Shown here: piece by piece, positions 18,767 through 42,919 of the stretch
Position numbering within the stretch: the stretch's first letter is position 1
How the letters are laid out: each line of letters opens with the position of its first letter
DNA from: Cyanobacteria bacterium P01_H01_bin.119
GTDB lineage: Bacteria; Cyanobacteriota; Cyanobacteriia; Phormidesmidales; Phormidesmidaceae
Length of the DNA stretch: 44,043 nucleotides
Direction: 5' to 3'
Assembly (NCBI GenBank): GCA_039177155.1
Contig: JBCDFX010000001.1
Coordinates: forward strand, 1 to 44,043
Notes under the pieces: model-generated
The model's database searches: none
Seen by the model: only the letters and a program-made list of their open reading frames with translations
Told to the model about the DNA's origin: nothing
Position numbers and translations under genes: made by a program

Positions 18767-19837
18767 TTATAGGCTAACAGGCTGCGGGGAAACCATGGCG
18801 CGATCGCTGATCATGACGTCTTCAAAACTAATGCTTTGCTCACGCTCTCCATAGGTCTTCAACAGCGTCGCAATCCGCTTGCGAATCATAATGCCAGGGC
18901 GATCGGTAAACATATGCTCTTCCTTGCCCATCATCAAGGGAACATCCGGATCGGTAGACTCTAAAATCCGCTTATCCTCAAGGGTTACGGCCCGGTCAAA
19001 GGCCACTACGTCGGCGGCTTTAGTGTCTGCTTCAGTATCATTACGCACGCAGAACTGCACCATTTGAGAGGTGCCATCGTCAATAGGAGTCATGGTGTTG
19101 ACCACCACATGGGACAGGCCATTGGGGTAGTTAATTCGCAACCGAATGGTAAACGGCATAAACCAGTCCATATCCAGCGTGCGAACGGTTTGCGCATTAT
19201 CCATCTTTAAATTCTGCTGCTGCAGGTCAGGGTTGACCACCCCTAAAATTCCGGCTACGTGAATGCCTGTCTCAGTTCTGGTAATGTCCAGCGCGTCTGG
19301 GATAGGGTGCTCTTCGCTGCCGAAGGTTTCGGTGTGCACAAAGGTGGGATGGGCCAAATCTAGCTCGTTTTCCATTACCCGCAGCCCAGAGCAGCGCCAG
19401 GGTTCATAAAACTCGTGAATCACTCTAAACTCTGGGTTAACCGTCTCTGGGATATAGGGAATATCCATAATGGGCTCGTCTAGGCACACCCAGGCGTAGC
19501 CGTAGCGTTCCACACATTGAAAGGCGTCAACTCGGTAGGCGCGAGGAATAGCGGCATTGGGCTTAAGTTGGGGCACCCGAACACAGCCCCCGTGATTGTC
19601 GAACTCCCAGCCGTGATAGGGGCAGCACAGCCGCCCGTCCTCTACTCTTCCCAACGATAGTTTAGCGGTGCGGTGACAGCAGCGATCGCGCACTGCCGCT
19701 GGAGCCCCGTCTTGGTCAAGCCAAATTACAATTGGCTCTCCCAAAAGCTGAAATCCTTTTGGCCCCTCAGCTAAGTTTGCAATGGGCACAACAGGATACC
19801 AAAATCGCCGAAAAACAGGCTGTTGGGTCACTAGCAT
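18767..19837 (-). CDS. Rieske [2Fe-2S] non-heme iron oxygenase (PaO/Tic55-like family)
   Basis: 356 aa with the Rieske motif CCHRTAKLS...CCPYHGWEF and a C-terminal catalytic domain. Confidence 0.8.
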   Translation of the reverse strand: MLVTQQPVFRRFWYPVVPIANLAEGPKGFQLLGEPIVIWLDQDGAPAAVRDRCCHRTAKLSLGRVEDGRLCCPYHGWEFDNHGGCVRVPQLKPNAAIPRAYRVDAFQCVERYGYAWVCLDEPIMDIPYIPETVNPEFRVIHEFYEPWRCSGLRVMENELDLAHPTFVHTETFGSEEHPIPDALDITRTETGIHVAGILGVVNPDLQQQNLKMDNAQTVRTLDMDWFMPFTIRLRINYPNGLSHVVVNTMTPIDDGTSQMVQFCVRNDTEADTKAADVVAFDRAVTLEDKRILESTDPDVPLMMGKEEHMFTDRPGIMIRKRIATLLKTYGEREQSISFEDVMISDRAMVSPQPVSL

Positions 19838-19961
19838 AGGTCGTCAAGTCTCCAGAGCAAAGTTTGTCTCAGCTGTAGGGGGGCAGTACAGGCAAGAGCC
19901 AAGCACCAATTTAAGAAATCTGCGAATCACCCACTAACAGGGCGACGAGCTATGGCAACCG

Positions 19962-20050
19962 GCCGAAACGTTCGGGCGAGTTGCGAGTCAGATTGCTTCT
20001 GTACCAGCAGCTCCAGCAATACTGGGTGCGGTAAGCAATCTAATCGAAGC
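19962..20050 (+). repeat. Intergenic hairpin repeat, copy 5 (plus orientation; closest to the consensus)
   Basis: GCCGAAACGTTCGGGCGAGTTGCGAGTCAGATTGCTTCTGTACCAGCAGCTCCAGCAATACTGGGTGCGGTAAGCAATCTAATCGAAGC. Confidence 0.8.
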
Positions 20051-20222
20051 TGCAGGTTTATCCCAAATTAGGTAGCAGGCGCAAGTGAGCGGAATGCCTA
20101 AAGCTGTTTGCCTAGACTACTGAATGAAGGATTTTTGCTGTTGTTAACTTAACTACGATTTGATTTTTGGCGGGCGGCATGGGTCAGCAAAGAGGCTGCC
20201 GTCACTATCATGCTGCTCTCAG

Positions 20223-23200
20223 TCATTCTGCTCTCGACTCAGCATGGGGTATTGAGGCAGCAGGGAGCGGATAGGTCGTTACCGTACCGTCTGGCCCAAT
20301 CCAGACGATGGCAGCAACGGGCTGTTGGGTGGCAAAGGCAGTCTCCTGATGAGCTTCTATGGCAATCCTGAGAGACTCGGGTAGGGCAACCTCATTCCAG
20401 CCGTTACCGACGCTCTGGGCAGGTAGGATAGATGCGATCCCATTGCCCCCACCCGCCGGTTTAAATTCGGTTGATATAGATTGGGCGAAGGGAACATTAG
20501 CCAGCGGCTGGGCAGCCCATGATCGTAGGGAAGTGCCGATGGTGTTGTGCCAGGGTCGAGCGGTGGTTTGCGTTGACCGATTGAGCGGTATCTGCAAAGC
20601 CGCTTCGATAGACGCTGCCCCCTGGGCAGGTATGTCCCAATGTCCTAAGACTTGCTGCACCCGTTCGGCCCCCCAGTTAGACAAAGTAGAGAGTTGCTGT
20701 GGAAATGATCGCACCTGTTGGGCGATAGTCTGAGCAATTTCTGTAGTTCGATCTTCAGATTGATTGGTTGCCGCAGCCATACCGCAAATCAGCGCGCCGG
20801 GCACTACCAGAGCCAGCGTCCGAGCTTTGAAACGATGACGACGATAGAGCTTACGGCTAGCGATAATGTAGCGCTCTGCTAATCCTGAGAGATCTTCTCG
20901 GTGCTGTCGCCAAAACACTTCCGCTTCTGACAGCCGCCGTCCCGACAGTAAATAATCAGTGTGACGCGGACAGCCGTGCTGCTGCCAGTCTTTAGCTGCG
21001 CCCTCCAGCTTGCGCTGGTGGCGCAGCGTATCCCGTTTTTCGCTAAGCCACTGCCGCATGGGTCCCCAACTGCGGATTAGAGATTCGTGGACAATATCAA
21101 TGGTTTCAGCAGATGAGCCGGGCTGATTCACTTTGAAAGCTGGCTGTAAGGACTTGCCCGCGCGCCAACTTAAAGATCGCTGACTATTGAAAGAGGGGAC
21201 ATCAGGACGGGGAGAGGCTAGCTTACGAGCCAGCTTAGTTTGCAGTGAGTCGGTGCTGCCAAGCCCCGGCCACTGTCCCTCTGGTAAAGCAAGTCCTGTG
21301 GCTGCTGCAGGAGTTGGCAGGGATTCTCGGTGAATAACAATCAGTTGCTCACGGGCCAAGCGATTGAGGATGCGAGTGACTAAATCTACTGGAAATCTGC
21401 AATTGATCAGTTCTGAGATGTGGGCCCGGCGCTGGCTATCGACGGCTCCTTCTCCCAGCTCACACAGGGTTAGAAAAATCCGCTGGGCAACCTGTTTTTC
21501 CCGGGCGTCAAGCTGCTCAAAAATGTGGGTTGCTCGCTGCCCCAGTAGGTTGCGAATGCCGCCTAGCTTTGTGTAAGCCGCCATGGTCAGGCGGGGGCGA
21601 TCGCGCTCTTGATCGATTTCTCGCTGCCGCCACAGTTCCACTAGGGTCTGCTGCAGCAGGGCCAACTCGCCAGGGGCACCCGCAACGTCTAACAAAATTG
21701 AATACAGCAAGTTGGGCTCTAGGGTGAGGCCCGCCTGCTGGGCGGGCTTGGTGATGGCCCCTTTGATTTGGTCATAGGTCATTGGGCCGAGCCAGAGAGA
21801 CTGACGAGCTAAGGCATCAGCCAAAGCTGGATAGGGCTTTAGATGGGCCTGGCAGGCTGTTTGCGAGACAATCACTAAGCTCAAGGCAGGCGTCGGATGG
21901 GCGATCGCCTGATCTAAGCACTGCAAAACGCGATCGCGCTGATTGCAAACTGCGTCAGACAGTCCTGGTGCAAATAGCGATTCAAACTGATCGAGAATCA
22001 GCACAAATCGGGCCGGTGCACATCGATGTGACGGAGAGGGCTGTAGCTGGGTTACCGTCTGTAGGGTCGTTGTTGAATCAGTACTGCTCTGAGTTTCCCC
22101 TAAGGCCGGCGGTAGGCTGGCCTGGGCTAATCGACTCAGGCTGTCTTTTCCCTGCCGTAGAAACTGCTCGGCTCGCTGGAGCTGTTCAGCCTGGGTAATA
22201 CTGTCTGCGCCTGAATCGACAAAGGCAGCGGCCAACTGCTGCAGGGGAGCATGGGCCAAGGCGAGATATCGAGTAGGCCAACGATCGCTGCCGGGAATGC
22301 ACTGCCCCTGGCGCAGTTGATAGATTAGCCCCGCCTGTACCAGAGACGTTTTACCAATGCCGGAGGCCCCGATAATGGCACTCAACGGCTGGCTATTAAC
22401 CCGCTCCAACAGTTGCCGGGTCAATTCCTCGCGACCGAAGAATTGGTCTCCCTGCCCTTCGGAAAAGGGAACCAGTCCTGGGTAGGGGCACTGAATGGAA
22501 GACGCTTCATTTAAATCTGATGGCCCGTAAGTCGGGAGAGTGTCCGTAAAAGCAGCTAGCTTACTTTGAGCGCGGGTCAGGATAATATCGCTGCCAGAAC
22601 TTTCAAACAAAGGCTGCTGAAGTTCTCCTTTAAGCCGCTGGCTGACCTGGCTAATTAACCCGTGACTGCCTACTACACCGCGATCGCCGTGGGGATCAAG
22701 CCCTTTTAGCACCGCCTGTGTAAATACGCTAAATGGTGATTCTAGTGATTCGTAGGCGGCCTCAAATTCGCGCGAGGCGGCCATAAACAATCGGTCTGTG
22801 CCGCTGCAAGCTCCCGGATCGGCCTCTAAAAAATTGAGAATTTCTCCACTATGGCAGCAGTCCAAAATAACGATACGCTGCCGAATCGGGCTTTCCTGCA
22901 GCAGTCGCCGCAGCCAAAAGAGAGAAAGCCCAAAATTGCCTTGCTCTGGATTAGTGTCGCTGGTCGCAAGATAGCCTTCGCGGATGCCTGCGTTGCGCTG
23001 AAATCCATGGCCTGAAAAATAAAATAGGGCCGTTTGAGGGATATTTCGACCGCTTGGTTTGAATAATTGAACAAGAGCATTTTCAAGGGTGCGGGCTGTT
23101 ACTGCGGTTCGCTGGCCTACCACAGGGCGATGAGCTTGAATAATTTCTGGCACTCGTTGTACCCGAAATTCTCCATGGGTTTGGAGCAGATCAGCGATCG

Positions 23201-23282
23201 CGCCTGCATCGTTAGCAGGAGCTTTTAGACTGGGTAAACCCTGATATTTATTAATTCCGACAACGAGTGCATCCCTTGACAT
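20223..23282 (-). CDS. Orthocaspase (peptidase C14) fused to a STAND-type P-loop NTPase, a TM helix and an uncharacterised C-terminal domain
   Basis: 1019 aa. The caspase dyad is YFSGH(92)GF and ILDCC(143)HSGE. The linker PYPGLVPFSEGQGDQFFGREE is typical of STAND NTPases. The Walker A motif is GASGIGKTS (305-313) and the Walker B motif is FVLILDQFE. HESLIRSWGPMRQWL...LSGRRLSEAEVFW follows, then a TM helix (LALVVPGALICGMAAA) and a tail of about 190 aa. Confidence 0.8.
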   Translation of the reverse strand: MSRDALVVGINKYQGLPSLKAPANDAGAIADLLQTHGEFRVQRVPEIIQAHRPVVGQRTAVTARTLENALVQLFKPSGRNIPQTALFYFSGHGFQRNAGIREGYLATSDTNPEQGNFGLSLFWLRRLLQESPIRQRIVILDCCHSGEILNFLEADPGACSGTDRLFMAASREFEAAYESLESPFSVFTQAVLKGLDPHGDRGVVGSHGLISQVSQRLKGELQQPLFESSGSDIILTRAQSKLAAFTDTLPTYGPSDLNEASSIQCPYPGLVPFSEGQGDQFFGREELTRQLLERVNSQPLSAIIGASGIGKTSLVQAGLIYQLRQGQCIPGSDRWPTRYLALAHAPLQQLAAAFVDSGADSITQAEQLQRAEQFLRQGKDSLSRLAQASLPPALGETQSSTDSTTTLQTVTQLQPSPSHRCAPARFVLILDQFESLFAPGLSDAVCNQRDRVLQCLDQAIAHPTPALSLVIVSQTACQAHLKPYPALADALARQSLWLGPMTYDQIKGAITKPAQQAGLTLEPNLLYSILLDVAGAPGELALLQQTLVELWRQREIDQERDRPRLTMAAYTKLGGIRNLLGQRATHIFEQLDAREKQVAQRIFLTLCELGEGAVDSQRRAHISELINCRFPVDLVTRILNRLAREQLIVIHRESLPTPAAATGLALPEGQWPGLGSTDSLQTKLARKLASPRPDVPSFNSQRSLSWRAGKSLQPAFKVNQPGSSAETIDIVHESLIRSWGPMRQWLSEKRDTLRHQRKLEGAAKDWQQHGCPRHTDYLLSGRRLSEAEVFWRQHREDLSGLAERYIIASRKLYRRHRFKARTLALVVPGALICGMAAATNQSEDRTTEIAQTIAQQVRSFPQQLSTLSNWGAERVQQVLGHWDIPAQGAASIEAALQIPLNRSTQTTARPWHNTIGTSLRSWAAQPLANVPFAQSISTEFKPAGGGNGIASILPAQSVGNGWNEVALPESLRIAIEAHQETAFATQQPVAAIVWIGPDGTVTTYPLPAASIPHAESRAE

Positions 23283-23984
23283 TGATCGATTCCAGTAGAC
23301 AAAAAAATTAAATATGATTTGAGTACCGCAAAGCTCATATTCACTTTTGAAGCTTAGGAAAAGGCAATTTATTCAAAACACTCAAAAAGAATGATGGCCT
23401 TCAGGAATTTTGAAAAAACTGAATAAACTAAACTTAGATGGATTATTGAGGAACAATTAGAGCCTGTTTAACGACGTCTAGTTTCGCCAATCCTTTAGCG
23501 GGATCAACATATTTCCTTGCTGATAGCTCCACGATAGTCAAGCTTTTATCTGGTGTTAAAGGGGGTCTAGACCCCTATCAAAACGTCAATATGTTTTCCA
23601 ATAAATGCAATTCTTAAGAAGTCAGTTTTGATGTACAAAAACATGCGTAAACTTTATCATTTGCAAAAACAAAATCTGGAAATTTCCCGATCCGCAGTTG
23701 TACGGATAGACGACGGGCAATGCTTTGATTGCGGGCATAGGGTCAGTGATACTACGTGGTTTTAGCCTATGCATAAAGCTAATATCCGCCATGTGGCTGA
23801 TTTTGGCTTGAGGTTGCCTTATTTTCCGGAAAGTTTTGGTCTGCTATTGGGTTACCGGACCAAATGACCCAGAACACGGGGGCTGCTGACGTAAAGACTC
23901 TTCAACAACTCTGCCCATCCTCTTGGAAAGTAAGGCACCATTAAGGCACCTCTATAAGTGCAATGCAAACCAGGAGAATCTCAG

Positions 23985-24434
23985 ATGGGCCTGTTCGATG
24001 GCGTCTTCGAAGCTCAAAAAAATGTTTCAGAGTCTATGCTCAACCCGGCTGAGGCGTTTGCTGCAATCGCGCTGGTGGCGATCGCGGCCGATGGCTATCT
24101 GTCTGAGCAGGAAGGGCGAGAGATGACTATGGTGCTCTCCCGGATGCAGCTTTTTCGCAGCTACTCTAGCGATGTGCTCCATCGCATGTTGGATAAGCTA
24201 TTGGGCATGCTAAAACAGCAGGGGCCGGGCAGTTTGGTCGCGATGGCCAAAGCCTCGCTACCGGAAGATCTTAAGCCGACGGCGTTTGCGATCGCCACGG
24301 ATTTGGTGCTGGCGGATGGGACGGTGACCCCGCAAGAGCAGGCATTTTTAGACGATCTGTACCGAATTTTGGATATTCCTGGCGATACGGCGCTTCAGAT
24401 TGTTCAGGTAATGACGATTAAAAACCGAGGCTAG
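23985..24434 (+). CDS. TerB-like protein
   Basis: 149 aa starting from the ATG at 23985, which is preceded by AGGAGA. The pattern is AFAAIALVAIAADGYLSEQEGREM ... AFAIATDLVLADGTVTPQEQAFLDDL. The ORF track starts at 23958. Confidence 0.65.
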   Translation: MGLFDGVFEAQKNVSESMLNPAEAFAAIALVAIAADGYLSEQEGREMTMVLSRMQLFRSYSSDVLHRMLDKLLGMLKQQGPGSLVAMAKASLPEDLKPTAFAIATDLVLADGTVTPQEQAFLDDLYRILDIPGDTALQIVQVMTIKNRG

Positions 24435-27388
24435 TGGGCCTGTCCAATTAAGGTAAAAGCGGCCCAGTTTTGAGGGGATGGATAAACCGCCATCGTCTGC
24501 AGCATCGCCTGACGCAGCGCCTGGGCTTGATCGGGGTTGGACTGTCGCTGACGGTAAAACTCACTCATAAGCGCAGCAGTGGGCGCATCGGGAATAGCCC
24601 ATAGGGAAACAACAAGGCTAGAAGCACCCGCCGCGATCCAGGCGCGGGATAAGCCAACTACTCCATCGCCAGTGATGCTACCTCGCCCCGTGTCGCAGGC
24701 ACTCAGGACAATCAGTTGAGCTTGAGTCGATAGGCTGAGAATCTCTCGGGTGGTGAGCAAGCCGTCCTCTGCGCCATCGGGCGTCAGCGCGATCGCCCCT
24801 GGAATATCCGCTGCCCCAGGCCCAAGCCCATAGTCCAGCAGTCCGTGGGTCGCTAGATGGATAATAGGAGCCGTGGTTATGTGATGCTTAACCGCAGATT
24901 CGGTGGCCTGCGCCCCAATTAGAGCGTCAGCGTTGAGCAGGGCAGCAATGTCTTGAGCCTCTGTTTCTGCTCCGGGTAAAGGCGCTAGGGACTCATTTTC
25001 CCCAAGCTGCGGCGACCAAAGGCTGGGCATCACTGGATTGCCAACAATTAACGGTGCGGTGCTACTGGGCGCGATCGCCTCGCGTCTCCGCCGGGTTAGG
25101 TCCATCACTTGAATCGACGGCGAGGTAATCAGGGTGTGATTTTCAATCAGATAGCGTCCTTCCGGACTTTTAAGCGCCGCAAAGGGCACCAAAAACAGCT
25201 CCTGGTGAGGCACAATCACCACATGGGCGGTGGGGTCGGTTGGCATCAAATCAGCAATAGGGGCAATCAAAATGTCATAGAGCGAGGCTAGAGCCGCGTC
25301 GTCAGCATTTTCCAGGCCACCGGCAGCTACCACGCCCACGCCCCGACGCGGACAGTTTCCTCGGTCGCTATCCGCTGCGCTCAGCGAGGCAGCGGGCTGA
25401 CTAAATGGCGGCAGCGTCACTCCACTGGTTTGACGAAATTCAACGATGCCATCGGGCTGCACAACCCAAATGTAGAGGGTGCAGGCATCTACCCAGGAGT
25501 ATTCCACTAGGGTGGCCTGATGCTGGGCTGCAATTCGTTGAATATCTGCTAACTGAATATCTGCTAAATGAGGCGCTTCTACAGGGCTAATCGTGTCCAA
25601 ATCCCCTAGCGCCAGTTCGCTTTGCTCTGAAGCGGGGAGCACCGCTACGCTGCCCAAACGAATCGTCAATAAATCGACTAGGGCACGAGTGCGGCTATTT
25701 TCAGAAATTTCCAGCGCTTTTTCGGGCTGGTTTTGGCGCACATAAAGCTGCTGGAGCGCCTGGTAGGTTTGAACCTGGGTATCGAATAGGCTAATTTTTG
25801 CCTCGTCGCTAAGGGAGCCAGAGCGGAGCTGGGTCAGCAGGGCGATCGCTTCTAGTAAATCTGCCTCTGCCGCCGGGAGATTATTTTGTCGCAGGCGGGC
25901 AATGCCCAAATTACTTAGGGTGGTCGCAGTGCCGCTGCGATCGCCAATGCCCTGGGCGATCTCTATGGCTGAGTTATAGGCTGCAATCGCCTCACCGTAG
26001 CGTCCCTGCTGACTGTAAACGTAGCCAATATTATTTAGGACTGTGCTTTCGCGATCTGGAATTTCCAGGGCTTGAAAAATTTCCAGGGCGTCTTTGTAGT
26101 GGGTTAGGGATTGCTCAAAATCCCCCAAATCGTCATAAACTGCGCCAATATTAATCTGCAGTGCGCCAAGCTTAGCGGGCATATCTAGGTCTTGGATAAT
26201 CGCTAGGCTTTGCTCATACTGGGCAAGGGCCTCGTCGTAGCGTCCCTGGCTGTAATAGGCTTGGCCTATATTGTTGTAGCTGGTGGCCATGCCCACAGTG
26301 TCATCTAGACGAATGCGGATCTCTAGCGCCTGCTGGTAGTACTCTAGCGCCTGCTGTAGCTGCCCCAAATCCAGGGCAAAACTCCCTAAGTTACTGAGCA
26401 CCACTGCTTCTCCAGCAGGGTCGCCGAGATCTTGCATAATCTCTAAGCTTTGTTGATAGCTCCCTAACGCCTCGCCATAATTGCCCTGGGCGCGGTGGTG
26501 CTCGGCAATATTATTAAGGGTGCTGGCCTCCCCGGCCCGATCGCCTAGCCCCTGCCGCAGGGTTAGGGCTTGGGCGTAAACGGCTGATGCGGCATCAAAA
26601 TCCCCCTGTTCGACATAGGCTGCGCCCAAGCTGTTGAGGGTGCTGGCTTCTCCAGGGCGATCGCCAATTCGCTGCTGAATGGCCAGCGCCTGCTGGTATA
26701 GCGCGATCGCATCGGTATAGGTGCCTCGGTTATAGTGAGCCACGCCCATGCTTTTCAGCGTGTCGGCTTCCCCACGAGGGCGATTGAGCCGCCGGTAGAG
26801 GACTAGGGCCTGGGCATAGGTCTCCAACGCCAGGTCAGTCTGGCCGCGAAAGTCGTAAATGCTGGCGATATTGTTAAGGGCTGTCGCCTCACCTTCCGGC
26901 TCTGAGGTGTCTTGAAAGATGCTTAGAGCTTGCTGGTAGTACTCTAGGGCAGCGGTTGAGTCGCCAAGACGCTGCTGAATCAGTCCAATTTGGTTGAGCG
27001 CTGTTCCCTCTCCCACGCGATCGCCTACTTCTTGGCTAATAGTCAACGCTTGGTTGAGGGCCGCGATCGCGTCATCATAGCGCCCCATACTGTCATAGGT
27101 TGAGCCAATCCAACTGTAGACAATGCCCTCGTAAAAGCGATCGCCGGCCTGTTGATATAGCTGTAGAGAGAGCTGAAGTCGCTGAAGCGCTAAGGGAAAA
27201 GCGCCTTGACGCAGCGCTTCAATGCCTTGGTGCAGGAGCTGGTGGGGATCGGTGCTGAGTTGAGTAAGGGAAAGGGGTTCGTTGGCGATCGCCGGAATGG
27301 ACAAAAAAGTGACCCAAAACAGAGGAGTCACCAAGCTCCACAGCAAGAGCCCGGCACGACCTGCAAATCGGTTGAAATAAGCATTCAT
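24431..27388 (-). CDS. TPR-repeat protein with a C-terminal CHAT (caspase-HetF-like) protease domain and an N-terminal signal/anchor
   Basis: 985 aa. It has an N-terminal hydrophobic segment ending AIA-NE, then about 12 TPR units of about 40 aa (GD..GEA..LNN[IL]G.[AV]Y...G.Y..A...Y.Q.L.I). The CHAT domain carries HLATHG and LSACDTG. Confidence 0.85.
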   Translation of the reverse strand: MNAYFNRFAGRAGLLLWSLVTPLFWVTFLSIPAIANEPLSLTQLSTDPHQLLHQGIEALRQGAFPLALQRLQLSLQLYQQAGDRFYEGIVYSWIGSTYDSMGRYDDAIAALNQALTISQEVGDRVGEGTALNQIGLIQQRLGDSTAALEYYQQALSIFQDTSEPEGEATALNNIASIYDFRGQTDLALETYAQALVLYRRLNRPRGEADTLKSMGVAHYNRGTYTDAIALYQQALAIQQRIGDRPGEASTLNSLGAAYVEQGDFDAASAVYAQALTLRQGLGDRAGEASTLNNIAEHHRAQGNYGEALGSYQQSLEIMQDLGDPAGEAVVLSNLGSFALDLGQLQQALEYYQQALEIRIRLDDTVGMATSYNNIGQAYYSQGRYDEALAQYEQSLAIIQDLDMPAKLGALQINIGAVYDDLGDFEQSLTHYKDALEIFQALEIPDRESTVLNNIGYVYSQQGRYGEAIAAYNSAIEIAQGIGDRSGTATTLSNLGIARLRQNNLPAAEADLLEAIALLTQLRSGSLSDEAKISLFDTQVQTYQALQQLYVRQNQPEKALEISENSRTRALVDLLTIRLGSVAVLPASEQSELALGDLDTISPVEAPHLADIQLADIQRIAAQHQATLVEYSWVDACTLYIWVVQPDGIVEFRQTSGVTLPPFSQPAASLSAADSDRGNCPRRGVGVVAAGGLENADDAALASLYDILIAPIADLMPTDPTAHVVIVPHQELFLVPFAALKSPEGRYLIENHTLITSPSIQVMDLTRRRREAIAPSSTAPLIVGNPVMPSLWSPQLGENESLAPLPGAETEAQDIAALLNADALIGAQATESAVKHHITTAPIIHLATHGLLDYGLGPGAADIPGAIALTPDGAEDGLLTTREILSLSTQAQLIVLSACDTGRGSITGDGVVGLSRAWIAAGASSLVVSLWAIPDAPTAALMSEFYRQRQSNPDQAQALRQAMLQTMAVYPSPQNWAAFTLIGQAH

Positions 27389-40396: not shown

Positions 40397-42919
40397 TTAA
40401 ACGATTACAAAATCAGCCGCGGAAGCATCTATCACAGCGTTCAAGATAGCCAAAATCTCATCTCCAACCCGGATGCTGTTGCCCACAAAATTGAGGCTAT
40501 CGATCTCAATATCTGAAAGTCCTATCACATCAACACCTATTTCAAAGTCTGTGATAGTGTCTGTGCCTTCACCCGAAGTCAGCACAAAAATATCCCGACC
40601 AGAGCTAGCGTTATTATCGCCTGTTAGGGTGTCATTACCCAGACCTCCTCGCAGAATATCATCACCCGCATCGCCCCAAATCCAATCATCGCCGTCTTCG
40701 CCAAACAGTTTATCATTGCCAGCTTTACCGCCTATTCGGTCATTGCCAAAGCCGCCAAAGATAACATCATTACCGCTGATGCCATCTGGGAGCAGTTCGT
40801 TAGTATCTTCGCCACGAAGAATGTCGTTGCCATCGCTACCCCAGATTTGGTCATCCCCAAGACCGCCTGTAATAATGTCATCGCCTTCTCCCCCGATAAT
40901 TTTATCGCTGCCATTTTTCCCAAATATTTGATCATCACCGGCTAGCCCATCAATAAAGTCTTCACCGGGGGTTCCCTGCAAGACATCAGCCTGTACTGAA
41001 CCAACTAAAGTCGGTACAGGTGATGGCGAATCTTGGTCGGGGGCAGGTGTTTGTGTATTCAGCAAAGCTTGCAGTGCCGCATCTGCCTGAATGAGACCAA
41101 ATCCACTGGCTGAGTCAAAACCAATATCAAAACCGGGGGTGCTGGGATCATCTAAGTCAAGCGCAGAAGATTGCAATGCCTCATAGATTTCTGTAGGCGA
41201 AGCGTCTGGTACGGCTTCCAACAGCAGTGCTGCTACGGCAGCAGCATTAGGTGCTGCAGCAGATGTTCCAAAAAAGTTAGGAAATGGATCTGGATCAGCT
41301 GCAATATCTTGACCAAAGAAAGTTGTATTTCCGCCATCTGGGGCAACGATTTCAGGTTTTTGGCGATTTTCGGGCTCAGCTAAAGCATTCCCCTCACCAT
41401 CAAATAAGATAGGGGTACCTCCGACTGCAGAAAAAGGTTCTACGCTAGGAGCCGATTGCCCAAACGCAGGAGACTCCTCAAAAAAAGCCGCTCCCACTGC
41501 TTGAGCGCCTTTAGCATTGGCTTGGCCGAACAATGTACCGCTGCTGGTATCGTATTCATCGATCGATAAATCGCCAAAGCCAACGTATTTAATCAGGGCT
41601 GGATCGTCCCCTGCAAACTTCCCGATAACGACGTTGTACTCAGTCTCAAAGAAGCTATTGTTTGTAAACTCAAGCACCTCAACAGGATCACCGTTGAGAT
41701 TGCCATCAAAGCTGGCTGCGACAACGCGATTGTTGCTATCTACTAAAAAGATATCGAGATCGCTAGTCGAACCCTGTACACCAGAAGCCGAAAAATAGGG
41801 TGATGCCCACTGAAAAGAAAGACTAATTTCAGCACCTGATTCAACCGTGATGGATTGAAAAATATCAACTTCCAATCCTGGATCAAAATCATGGGCTTCT
41901 ACTTGAAAACTACCAAAGTCCAAGAAAACACCGCTGCCTCTAAAAGCGCTTTCATATGCTGTATCGGCATTGTTGCCAGCCGCAGAAAAATAGGCCACTC
42001 CATCGGCAACAACTTGATCGACCGCTTGAGCCACAATGCCATCTTGAAAGAAAGATTCCGTGAGATAAATAACATCATCGACAATCACGTCTGCATCTGC
42101 CTGCTCAGCCAGATTTACAATCCCCTGAGCGAATCCAGCTCGCCCCAGAAAGGCCGTCTGAAAGGCCAGATCAGCGCCAGGAGCAATATCGTTGATCAGC
42201 TGAAGCATGGCTCGCCCTTCGTCCGAGCCACCACCGGGTAAATCTTGCAGTACAGTGACTTCCGGCAAATCACCGCTAATTTGGTCAAAGGCTGCTCCAC
42301 CCAGATTGTTAAAGCTATCGGAGAGGACACCAACTGTTACCCCTTCGCCGGTGACGCCAAACTCAGAACTGGCTATATCAGCTTTTAAGGCAATCTTTGC
42401 CTGATTAGTAACGGTTCCTTGCTGAACAATTGGCCTGTAGGCGGGACGCATAAACTGCATCGCATCAGATGTCGCCATTGCCATCATGGTGTCTATTGGG
42501 ATGTACCCTGACACAACGCCGCCGTACTCTCCCGTGGCCACAAAACCATGGCCATCTAACTGGCCCATGAGAGCGTCCATCTGATGGGCGGCTACAACAT
42601 CCACCATGACCATGCCATCTTCGATCTGAAAAGTGGAATTGGCGCTTTGGAAAAAATCCACAGCGGCTTCGCCAAAAATGGTTTTGTATAGAGCGTATTG
42701 CGCTGATAGAGTGCTTAAATCACCGCCCATTTTGCTCAAACTAGCTGCCTTAGAGCCATTATTTAATGTTGAGCTAGTTGTTTGAGGCGTCCTTTGATTT
42801 ATTTGCCCTAAGGTAAATCTGTTTTCTACTCGATCGGTAAGCGCTTCAGTAGCTTTTTCTAATTCTGATTCTATATGTTTTCCAATATTAAGCAGTTTTT
42901 GAATTTTATTATTAATCAC
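40397..42919 (-). CDS. Subtilase-like (S8/S53-type) peptidase with C-terminal RTX (hemolysin-type Ca-binding) repeats; probable type I secretion substrate
   Basis: 840 aa with no N-terminal signal peptide. It has [27 protein letters not shown] and the serine motif [18 protein letters not shown]. About 8 GGxGxD nonapeptides follow ([28 protein letters not shown]...). The C-terminus ends ...AADFVIV. Confidence 0.75.

Follow-up and report, generated by a model that had tools for sequence, protein, structure and literature searches.

The nSTAND1 clade of STAND NTPases was defined by Kaur, Iyer, Burroughs and Aravind in 2021 as a clade of predicted counter-invader systems (PMC8195603), and nSTAND1 modules sometimes occur in the EACC1-caspase systems (PMC7159879). 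For Ava_0039, Ava_3079 and GEI7407_1667 a cytoplasmic p20 domain with an AAA_16/NACHT module, a transmembrane (TM) segment and an extracellular WD40 region have been proposed in silico (PMC7475262). A basic P1 specificity is typical of the C14 proteases that are not caspases, and the activity of the orthocaspase MaOC1 requires autoprocessing (PMC5756287). Here we describe a gene of Cyanobacteria bacterium P01_H01_bin.119 (GCA_039177155.1) that encodes an orthocaspase, an nSTAND1 NTPase, a predicted TM helix and a tail in one chain. The whole stretch of DNA that was analysed, called the window below, comprises 44,043 nucleotides of contig JBCDFX010000001.1. We found that the protein is an ordinary new addition to a known, abundant and already annotated cyanobacterial family of orthocaspase-nSTAND1 proteins, whose function is inferred only. 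An earlier description of the gene made from the letters alone (the sequence-only reading) had proposed a single polypeptide of 1019 aa at 20223-23282. This was confirmed by translation: an open reading frame (ORF) from ATG to stop, with 1019 codons plus the stop codon, fills 20223..23282 exactly. It lies on the minus strand, which had been left unstated, and a reading of this interval on the plus strand is interrupted by stops throughout.

The protease and the NTPase

Homologues were counted at E-values up to 1e-5, which gave 1503 proteins, and the best 120 of these together with the query (121 sequences) were used for the detailed comparisons. The best 120 come nearly all from filamentous cyanobacteria and metagenome-assembled genomes (MAGs), with Leptolyngbya, Phormidesmis, Oculatella, Pantanalinema and others represented, and carry database names such as 'caspase family protein', 'nSTAND1 domain-containing NTPase' and 'WD40 repeat protein'. 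They divide into a short class (about 850-1030 aa) and a long class, whose members reach about 1600-1800 aa and carry a large WD40 array. Over 60 % of the best 120 are of the short membrane-anchored form, and three paralogues were observed in one MAG. An alignment of 73 short-class relatives, in which M1 of the protein is invariant, underlies the statements on conservation below and was also used for the AlphaFold2 (AF2) model.

The N-terminal part of the protein (residues 1-230; 22593..23282, on the minus strand like all other parts of the gene) shows the p20-like caspase/metacaspase fold of Peptidase_C14. The Pfam profile PF00656 matched residues 5-228 with an E-value of 4.8e-16 (59.6 bits, cut-off 21.4) and the generic PADLOC caspase model PDLC02987 matched the protein with an E-value of 2.7e-18. 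The NCBIfam model NF047832 (caspase_w_EACC1) also matched (E 2.9e-27), at 95.6 bits and below its cut-off of 140. The catalytic residues are H92 in the motif FYFSGHG (codon 23007-23009) and C143 in the motif ILDCCHSG (codon 22854-22856). Both are invariant, as are C142, D25, S90 and D141, and we take the last three to be residues of the metacaspase S1 pocket. From the conserved acidic residues D25 and D141 we would predict proteolysis with a basic P1 specificity. AF2 modelled the domain with a predicted local distance difference test (pLDDT) score of about 85-94, and in a Foldseek search against the PDB the best matches of the N-terminus were the MALT1 paracaspase and the metacaspases of yeast (Yca1) and C. 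glabrata, with E-values of 3e-8 to 1e-5. The linker that joins the protease to the NTPase (residues 231-265; 22488..22592) shows a conservation of 0.62 and a pLDDT below 50 for residues 240-261, and is a candidate region for autoprocessing.

For the second part we observed a nearly full-length match to nSTAND1 (PF20703): residues 266-771 (20970..22487), which hold the P-loop, helical and winged-helix parts, cover profile positions 1-376 of 379 with an E-value of 1.3e-92 (311.9 bits, cut-off 27.1). A match to AAA_16 stayed just under the Pfam threshold. Walker A reads GASGIGKT (residues 305-312; 22347-22370) and Walker B reads FVLILDQFE (residues 426-434; 21981-22007), with LILDQFE at 428-434. 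G305, G310, K311, D431 and E434 are invariant across the 73 relatives. The NTPase was modelled at a pLDDT of about 85-95 and Foldseek aligned it with Orc1/Cdc6, an AAA+ domain plus winged helix, over about 415-420 alignment columns. AF2 draws winged-helix secondary structure at 593-652 and at 726-730. Within the wing lies an insertion (residues 655-723; 21114..21320) which is poorly conserved (0.25-0.49, column occupancy 0.37-0.83) and is predicted to be disordered (pLDDT about 32). The helical module that follows (residues 724-819; 20826..21113), in which HESLIRSW begins at residue 732, shows a conservation of 0.65-0.78 and ends in the K/R-rich juxtamembrane stretch YRRHRFKAR. Helices at 740-768, 781-793 and 800-839 were modelled at a pLDDT of 82-95.

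The assignments to C14 and STAND are solid, because the profile matches, the invariant catalytic and NTP-binding residues, the AF2 models and the Foldseek matches all agree with them. The sequence-only reading had named a C14 domain with an intact His92/Cys143 dyad, a STAND-type P-loop NTPase with both Walker motifs and a helical module resembling a winged helix-turn-helix in front of one TM helix. All three are borne out: the first by the profile search, the invariance of the dyad in 73 relatives and the structural comparison, the second by the full-length nSTAND1 match and the invariant motif residues, and the third by profile searches, structure prediction and the conservation in the family.

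The hydrophobic helix and the tail behind it

Directly after YRRHRFKAR follows the segment ARTLALVVPGALICGMAAATN (residues 820-840; 20763..20825), which we predict to form a single TM helix with the N-terminus inside and the C-terminus outside (N-in/C-out). It contains the most hydrophobic 19-mer of the protein, with a Kyte-Doolittle (KD) value of 1.68. All 121 family sequences have a homologous segment, those with WD40 repeats without exception, and in each of them it is the most hydrophobic segment. The family mean of the KD value is 1.86 and 98 of the 121 helices exceed 1.6. On the Hessa scale the sum is 1.68 for the window protein and 1.43 for the family median; the best 19-mer elsewhere in these proteins has a median of 7.9. 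The flanks of 15 aa hold on average 4.7 K and R on the N-terminal side and 1.2 on the C-terminal side across the family. Within the helix P828 is invariant and G834 near-invariant. Furthermore, 75 of 78 short-class tails have either no cysteine or two, and these tails are rich in Pro, Ser, Thr and Ala and poor in Lys and Arg; even cysteine counts and such a composition would fit an exported tail that forms disulfides in an oxidising compartment.

The topology was assigned from simple hydrophobicity scales (KD and Hessa) and the charge bias. A single-pass N-in/C-out topology is likely, because the hydrophobic helix is conserved, the charges follow the positive-inside bias and the tails show the described cysteine counts and composition. 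The protease and the NTPase would then be cytoplasmic and the tail of 179 aa would lie outside, in the periplasm or the thylakoid lumen. The sequence-only reading had likewise placed the tail outside the cytoplasm, which the conserved helix and the positive-inside bias make likely. It had also suggested that a TM helix takes the place of the usual WD40 or TPR array, and this did not hold up: the WD40-bearing relatives of about 1700 aa carry the same helix. Because helix and array coexist in these relatives the helix is no replacement for the array. The TM helix dates back to the ancestor of the family and occurs in the WD40 forms as well. The point concerns the family as a whole, as the hydrophobic helix is kept in both the short and the WD40 forms and is not specific to the window.

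The sequence beyond the helix comprises 179 aa (residues 841-1019), and the sequence-only reading had seen in it an uncharacterised extracytoplasmic domain of about 190 aa that senses a signal from the envelope or from outside the cell. A rival explanation of the protein can be built on this: residues of about 830-1019 would form a folded novel extracytoplasmic sensor that has replaced the WD40 or TPR array and signals through the TM helix to the NTPase. The predicted topology does put the tail outside, AF2 draws a few helices at 846-896 and about 40 residues at the very end are conserved. The column conservation, however, is 0.6-0.9 over residues 1-840, falls to 0.10-0.28 over 841-960 and rises to 0.43-0.52 only over 961-1006. 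Residues 841-960 (20403..20762) form a variable, low-complexity segment rich in A, Q, S, T and P, which is mostly predicted to be disordered. The pLDDT is below 50 for residues 863-988 and slightly higher for 841-862, with means of 54 and 62 for blocks of 10 residues.

Homology searches gave the same picture of the tail. In a BLASTP comparison of the tail with the 120 retrieved relatives we found the 99 % identical protein P0001, whereas the orthologues P0002 (58 % identical) and P0003 (54 % identical) matched only in the last 18-26 residues. A phmmer search of the tail against 1.84 billion (1.84e9) representatives returned P0001, a 98 % identical variant from another strain, and a tandem-repeat artefact (P0121). 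When we scanned the window tail and five other tails with Pfam at E-values up to 10, no sensor-type family (WD40, TPR, FGE) was matched, and residues 841-1019 hold none of the repeat or lectin-type sensors of typical STAND conflict proteins that Pfam describes (WD40, TPR, FGE). The idea of a hidden known domain was dropped, the only Pfam match at E up to 10 being a sub-threshold chance match to DASH_Dad2.

Another indication comes from a comparison of two strains. Over 22 kb the window is 98.7 % identical in DNA to a contig (L009) of the MAG Cyanobacteria bacterium P01_D01_bin.128 (GCA_039024935.1), and its source is accordingly closely related to that marine filamentous cyanobacterium. Between the two alleles residues 1-654 show 10 synonymous and 0 non-synonymous codon changes, and the tail shows 3 synonymous and 4 non-synonymous ones. 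The enzymatic core is, judging by these codon changes, under strong purifying selection, whereas the non-synonymous changes in the tail are at least as many as the synonymous ones. Because of its low conservation, its orphan sequence, the lack of a relevant Pfam match, the low pLDDT and the codon changes between strains we conclude that the tail is a fast-evolving, low-complexity and largely disordered spacer, neither a ligand-binding nor an uncharacterised domain. The rival sensor, which also conflicts with the presence of the TM helix in WD40-bearing relatives where nothing was replaced, is in our judgement most improbable. Structure prediction of the C-terminus had been proposed in the sequence-only reading as a check, with a disordered segment without conserved fold as the outcome that would speak against it, and a mostly disordered segment without conserved fold is what we obtained. 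The proposed tail domain is thus 179 aa long without a conserved or confident fold, and its role as a sensor of envelope or extracellular signals is not supported, the tail being mostly disordered and essentially orphan.

The C-terminal island and its weak resemblance to a WD40 repeat

The one conserved stretch of the tail (residues 961-1006; 20265..20402), LRIAIEAH...QQPVAAIVWIGPDGTVTTY, is a degenerate copy of a mini-motif of the family, made of a helix and a beta-hairpin, and we refer to it as the island. Most short-class tails end in [DE]DY-VMVPAGKM-xSPxNPxE-xVEVW(W/L)IQP (consensus DYVMVPAGKMxSPxNPxExVEVWxIQP), and a hidden Markov model of the island matched 63 of 78 short-class proteins. 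In the canonical case P0017 AF2 places a disordered spacer (802-854, pLDDT about 30) before the motif (residues 855-895), which is modelled as a helix (857-865) and a long beta-hairpin (868-877/885-893) with a pLDDT of 76-82. A degenerate island, ...QQPVAAIVWIGPDGTV..., is found in the window protein and in the two orthologues closest to it, and in the window copy VPAGK is missing and AIVWIGPDG stands in place of VEVWWIQP. Its hairpin was modelled at 991-995/1001-1005 with a pLDDT of 56-58. Many tails further have a (G)LWQ(K/R)R motif in their middle part and terminate in EPAxxGxR.

Single WD40 repeats of the long class can be aligned with the island in register: the P-x-G-K, the B-C turn Asp and the V-x-V-W recur with identical spacing. 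An hhalign comparison gave a score of 13.9 with P 0.004 and a probability of only 7.8 %, and the window copy is more degenerate than the family island. None of 200 column-shuffled controls reached 13.9 (mean 7.4, maximum 12.9). The alignment suggests that the island may be a one-blade WD40 relic or precursor. A search with the 48-aa island profile in a collection of 5.8e9 proteins gave 9 candidates and returned only three short fragments, all belonging to this family, which is uninformative on other contexts. As one relative is annotated 'sulfatase-modifying factor' we also asked whether the island might be left over from the N-terminal strand of an FGE-sulfatase/C-type-lectin domain. This was rejected, with no support from Pfam and no FGE-bearing relative in the top 120.

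In a neighbour-joining tree the WD40 class forms one clade nested among short-class clades, so that the short class is paraphyletic. The query clade adjoins the WD40 clade, and a few independent truncations lie inside the latter. The tree is rough, midpoint-rooted and built from the top 120 matches only, and it does not decide between loss and amplification of the WD40 repeats. Two short proteins nested in the WD40 clade, P0078 and P0083, show a different small beta-rich segment behind the helix, which lies between two cysteines (C..LRI.IEG....V.EV.I.PNQ.Y.V......G.I.L.SL....C). This suggests that the propeller was independently replaced there by another exported mini-domain.

The resemblance to WD40 bears on a second rival explanation, by which the helix does not span the membrane and the protein is a cytosolic, truncated derivative of an Apaf-1-like caspase-nSTAND1-WD40 protein, with a decayed propeller as its tail, that has no sensor of its own and acts, for example, as a helper, a decoy or a constitutively poised paralogue. 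The island fits this in so far as VPAGKM pairs with SPDGQx, D with D and VEVW with VRLW, in an alignment that beats 200 of 200 shuffles, and the short proteins inside the WD40 clade indicate that truncation happens. The helix of the query is marginally hydrophobic, and relatives have been described as Apaf-1-like intracellular sensors (PMC13581612). Positive-inside bias, even cysteine counts and Pro/Ser/Thr-rich tails, however, fit an exported tail, and the helix stands about 6 Hessa units apart from every other segment. The nesting of the WD40 class in a paraphyletic short class leaves the direction, loss or amplification, open, and the hhalign probability is low. We therefore regard a cytosolic derivative as unlikely and keep to the membrane-anchored topology.

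For the hairpin itself we see at most a short docking or oligomerisation element. A bolder possibility is that the island lies beyond the membrane as a functional relic or precursor of one blade of the WD40 propeller of the sister class, and that the hairpins of an oligomer form an intermolecular beta-sheet or a propeller-like ring, or that ligand-driven assembly of the hairpins drives oligomerisation. We consider this very unlikely. If it were true, the protein would be a true transmembrane NLR with an ectodomain that exists solely in the oligomer.

Proposed mechanism, genomic setting and comparison with known systems

We propose that the gene product is probably a membrane-anchored, NLR-like cell-fate switch in a short form without a repeat sensor. 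By analogy with STAND/NLR proteins and metacaspases, the NTPase would keep the protein inactive and monomeric. A trigger would permit nucleotide exchange and oligomerisation at the membrane, and oligomerisation would gather and activate the caspase domains, possibly with autocleavage in the disordered linker at 231-265. The active protease would then cut cellular targets after Arg or Lys and cause growth arrest or cell death. The trigger might be sensed by the terminal hairpin, by the disordered 655-723 insertion of the winged helix or by the conserved helix with its Pro and Gly residues. If the helix spans the membrane, the family would hold NLR-like switches with their sensor side outside the cytoplasm, which current bacterial STAND surveys leave unconsidered. 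The short forms would display what remains without a propeller, namely the disordered spacer followed by a hairpin of about 40 aa.

Several observations weigh against this proposal. It gives no account of how activation starts, because no sensor can be recognised in the protein. The helix of the query itself is marginal and lies at the weak end of the family, with a KD value of 1.68 and with one Pro and two Gly. The 2026 survey that casts cyanobacterial caspase-STAND-WD40 proteins as Apaf-1-like sensors leaves the membrane helix undiscussed (PMC13581612). Relatives in the PDB were not detectable by sequence, neither with the single protein nor with the family profile, and PADLOC gave no match to an Avs or NLR defence system beyond its generic caspase model. 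Finally, the locus is not a defence island, as the neighbours are housekeeping genes except for one TPR-CHAT protein.

The flanking genes encode MurG, a beta-carbonic anhydrase, thioredoxins, RsmB, an HDAC-like protein, an M23 peptidase, a MOSC protein and a Rieske oxygenase. The window contains 67 HIP1 sites (GCGATCGC) where 0.9 are expected by chance, and the gene has 5 of them, i.e. 1.63 per kb compared to 1.52 per kb in the window. The GC content of the gene is 0.549 and that of the window 0.515. The order of TerB-like ORF, caspase gene, Rieske/VanA_C gene and hypothetical gene is kept at the loci of P0001 and P0002, and its downstream part at the locus of P0003, so that synteny is kept in relatives down to 58 % identity. 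With a native HIP1 density, a native GC content and conserved synteny, these data support a resident and vertically inherited gene. The sequence-only reading had called the gene resident rather than recently acquired, in agreement with the HIP1 density and the synteny; the comparison of orthologous neighbourhoods that it recommended revealed no partner gene conserved at the locus.

A resident gene of this kind could also be a regulatory protease that serves in stress-induced death, differentiation or membrane protein quality control and belongs to no anti-phage or conflict system. This third rival explanation agrees with the housekeeping flanks, the native HIP1 density and GC content, the synteny down to 58 % identity, the purifying selection on the core and the PADLOC search, which matched no defence system apart from a generic caspase model. 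It has to be set against the statistical tie between nSTAND1-caspase fusions and conflict systems of multicellular bacteria (PMC8195603, PMC7159879). A fast-evolving tail and the presence of several paralogues in a genome (one MAG has three) are likewise typical of conflict genes. Such a role seems rather unlikely to us. As to the output of the proposed switch, the evidence directly favours neither a death of the abortive-infection type nor another regulated proteolysis.

The gene next to the caspase gene is a TerB-like ORF of 158 aa in divergent orientation (23958..24434, plus strand). Its Pfam match to TerB just exceeds the cut-off (24.8 bits against 24.4, E 2.9e-5), and the same neighbour was found in L001, L002 and L009, that is in the closest relatives only. 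The TerB-like ORF (23958-24434) overlaps by 4 nt the stop of the gene for the TPR-CHAT protein (24431-27388, minus strand), which is located immediately upstream and encodes 985 aa that comprise about 9 TPR repeats and, at the C-terminus, the caspase-like protease domain CHAT. The TPR-CHAT gene is present in the same-species MAG (L009) and absent at the orthologous P0002 locus (L001). Being absent from there it was rejected as a functional partner and is a neighbour only.

An unusually long intergenic region of 0.7-2 kb lies upstream of the caspase gene in every locus that we inspected (window 23283-23957, L001 9073-10001, L004 5927-8001, L006 7097-8001). In the window these 676 nt are AT-rich, with a GC content of 0.40 against 0.515 overall. 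They contain only short non-hydrophobic ORFs and no small EACC1-like ORF with a TM segment. A structured RNA was considered as well and discarded, as Rfam gave no match at E-values up to 0.1 within 19800-24500.

The flanks of short-class members further away are unrelated, apart from the gene of an SMC ATPase resembling Rad50, SbcC and LmuB. A Rad50/SbcC-like protein of about 920 aa (919-921) is encoded directly downstream on the same strand in 15 of the 16 loci outside the query clade that have downstream DNA (L006-L008, L010-L012, L014-L020, L022-L023; e.g. L012:7840-10599 and L010:5012-7774). It matched the LmuB model of PADLOC with E-values of 1e-34 to 1e-41, and its copies at different loci share 70-78 % identity. 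The short-class caspase-nSTAND1 gene and this Rad50/SMC-like gene may be a conserved pair. For the window gene such a partner was rejected, the SMC-like gene being absent from the whole window and from the query clade. Elsewhere in the window a protein of 840 aa (40397-42919, minus strand) combines a subtilase domain (Peptidase_S8) with RTX calcium-binding nonapeptide repeats and is probably a secreted protease.

Compared to the known systems, the protein shares with Apaf-1, Avs and bNACHT the order of effector, STAND NTPase and C-terminal region, and presumably the NTP-dependent oligomerisation. It differs from them in the clade of its NTPase, which is nSTAND1 and not NB-ARC, NACHT or Avs, and in having a membrane helix and no repeat sensor. 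The two-gene EACC1-caspase system (Kaur et al. 2020, PMC7159879) contains a related clade of caspases and likewise couples a membrane helix with small residues to a caspase. In the window protein, by contrast, the TM helix is in cis and there is no 5' EACC1 gene. Membership in that system was therefore rejected, given a caspase at 95.6 bits against the cut-off of 140 and no small single-TM ORF on the 5' side. The topology proposed in silico for Ava_0039, Ava_3079 and GEI7407_1667 is the same as the one we predict here, but those proteins have a WD40 ectodomain (PMC7475262).

The closest counterparts are found within the family itself. Short-class proteins of Leptolyngbya, Phormidesmis and marine MAGs (P0004-P0120), annotated 'caspase family protein', have the same architecture, the same length class and a tail of spacer and hairpin island. 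Relative to these the window protein has a degenerate island and a longer tail, and its locus is without the Rad50/SMC-like gene that follows most of the others. In WD40 relatives such as P0030, P0059 and P0108, which NCBI/UniRef name 'nSTAND1 domain-containing NTPase', residues 1-840 are 45-49 % identical and comprise the same caspase, the same nSTAND1 module, the same helical stalk and the same helix preceded by K and R. What follows the helix is a WD40 array of 900-1000 aa in these relatives, whereas in the window protein it is 179 aa of non-conserved and mostly disordered sequence.

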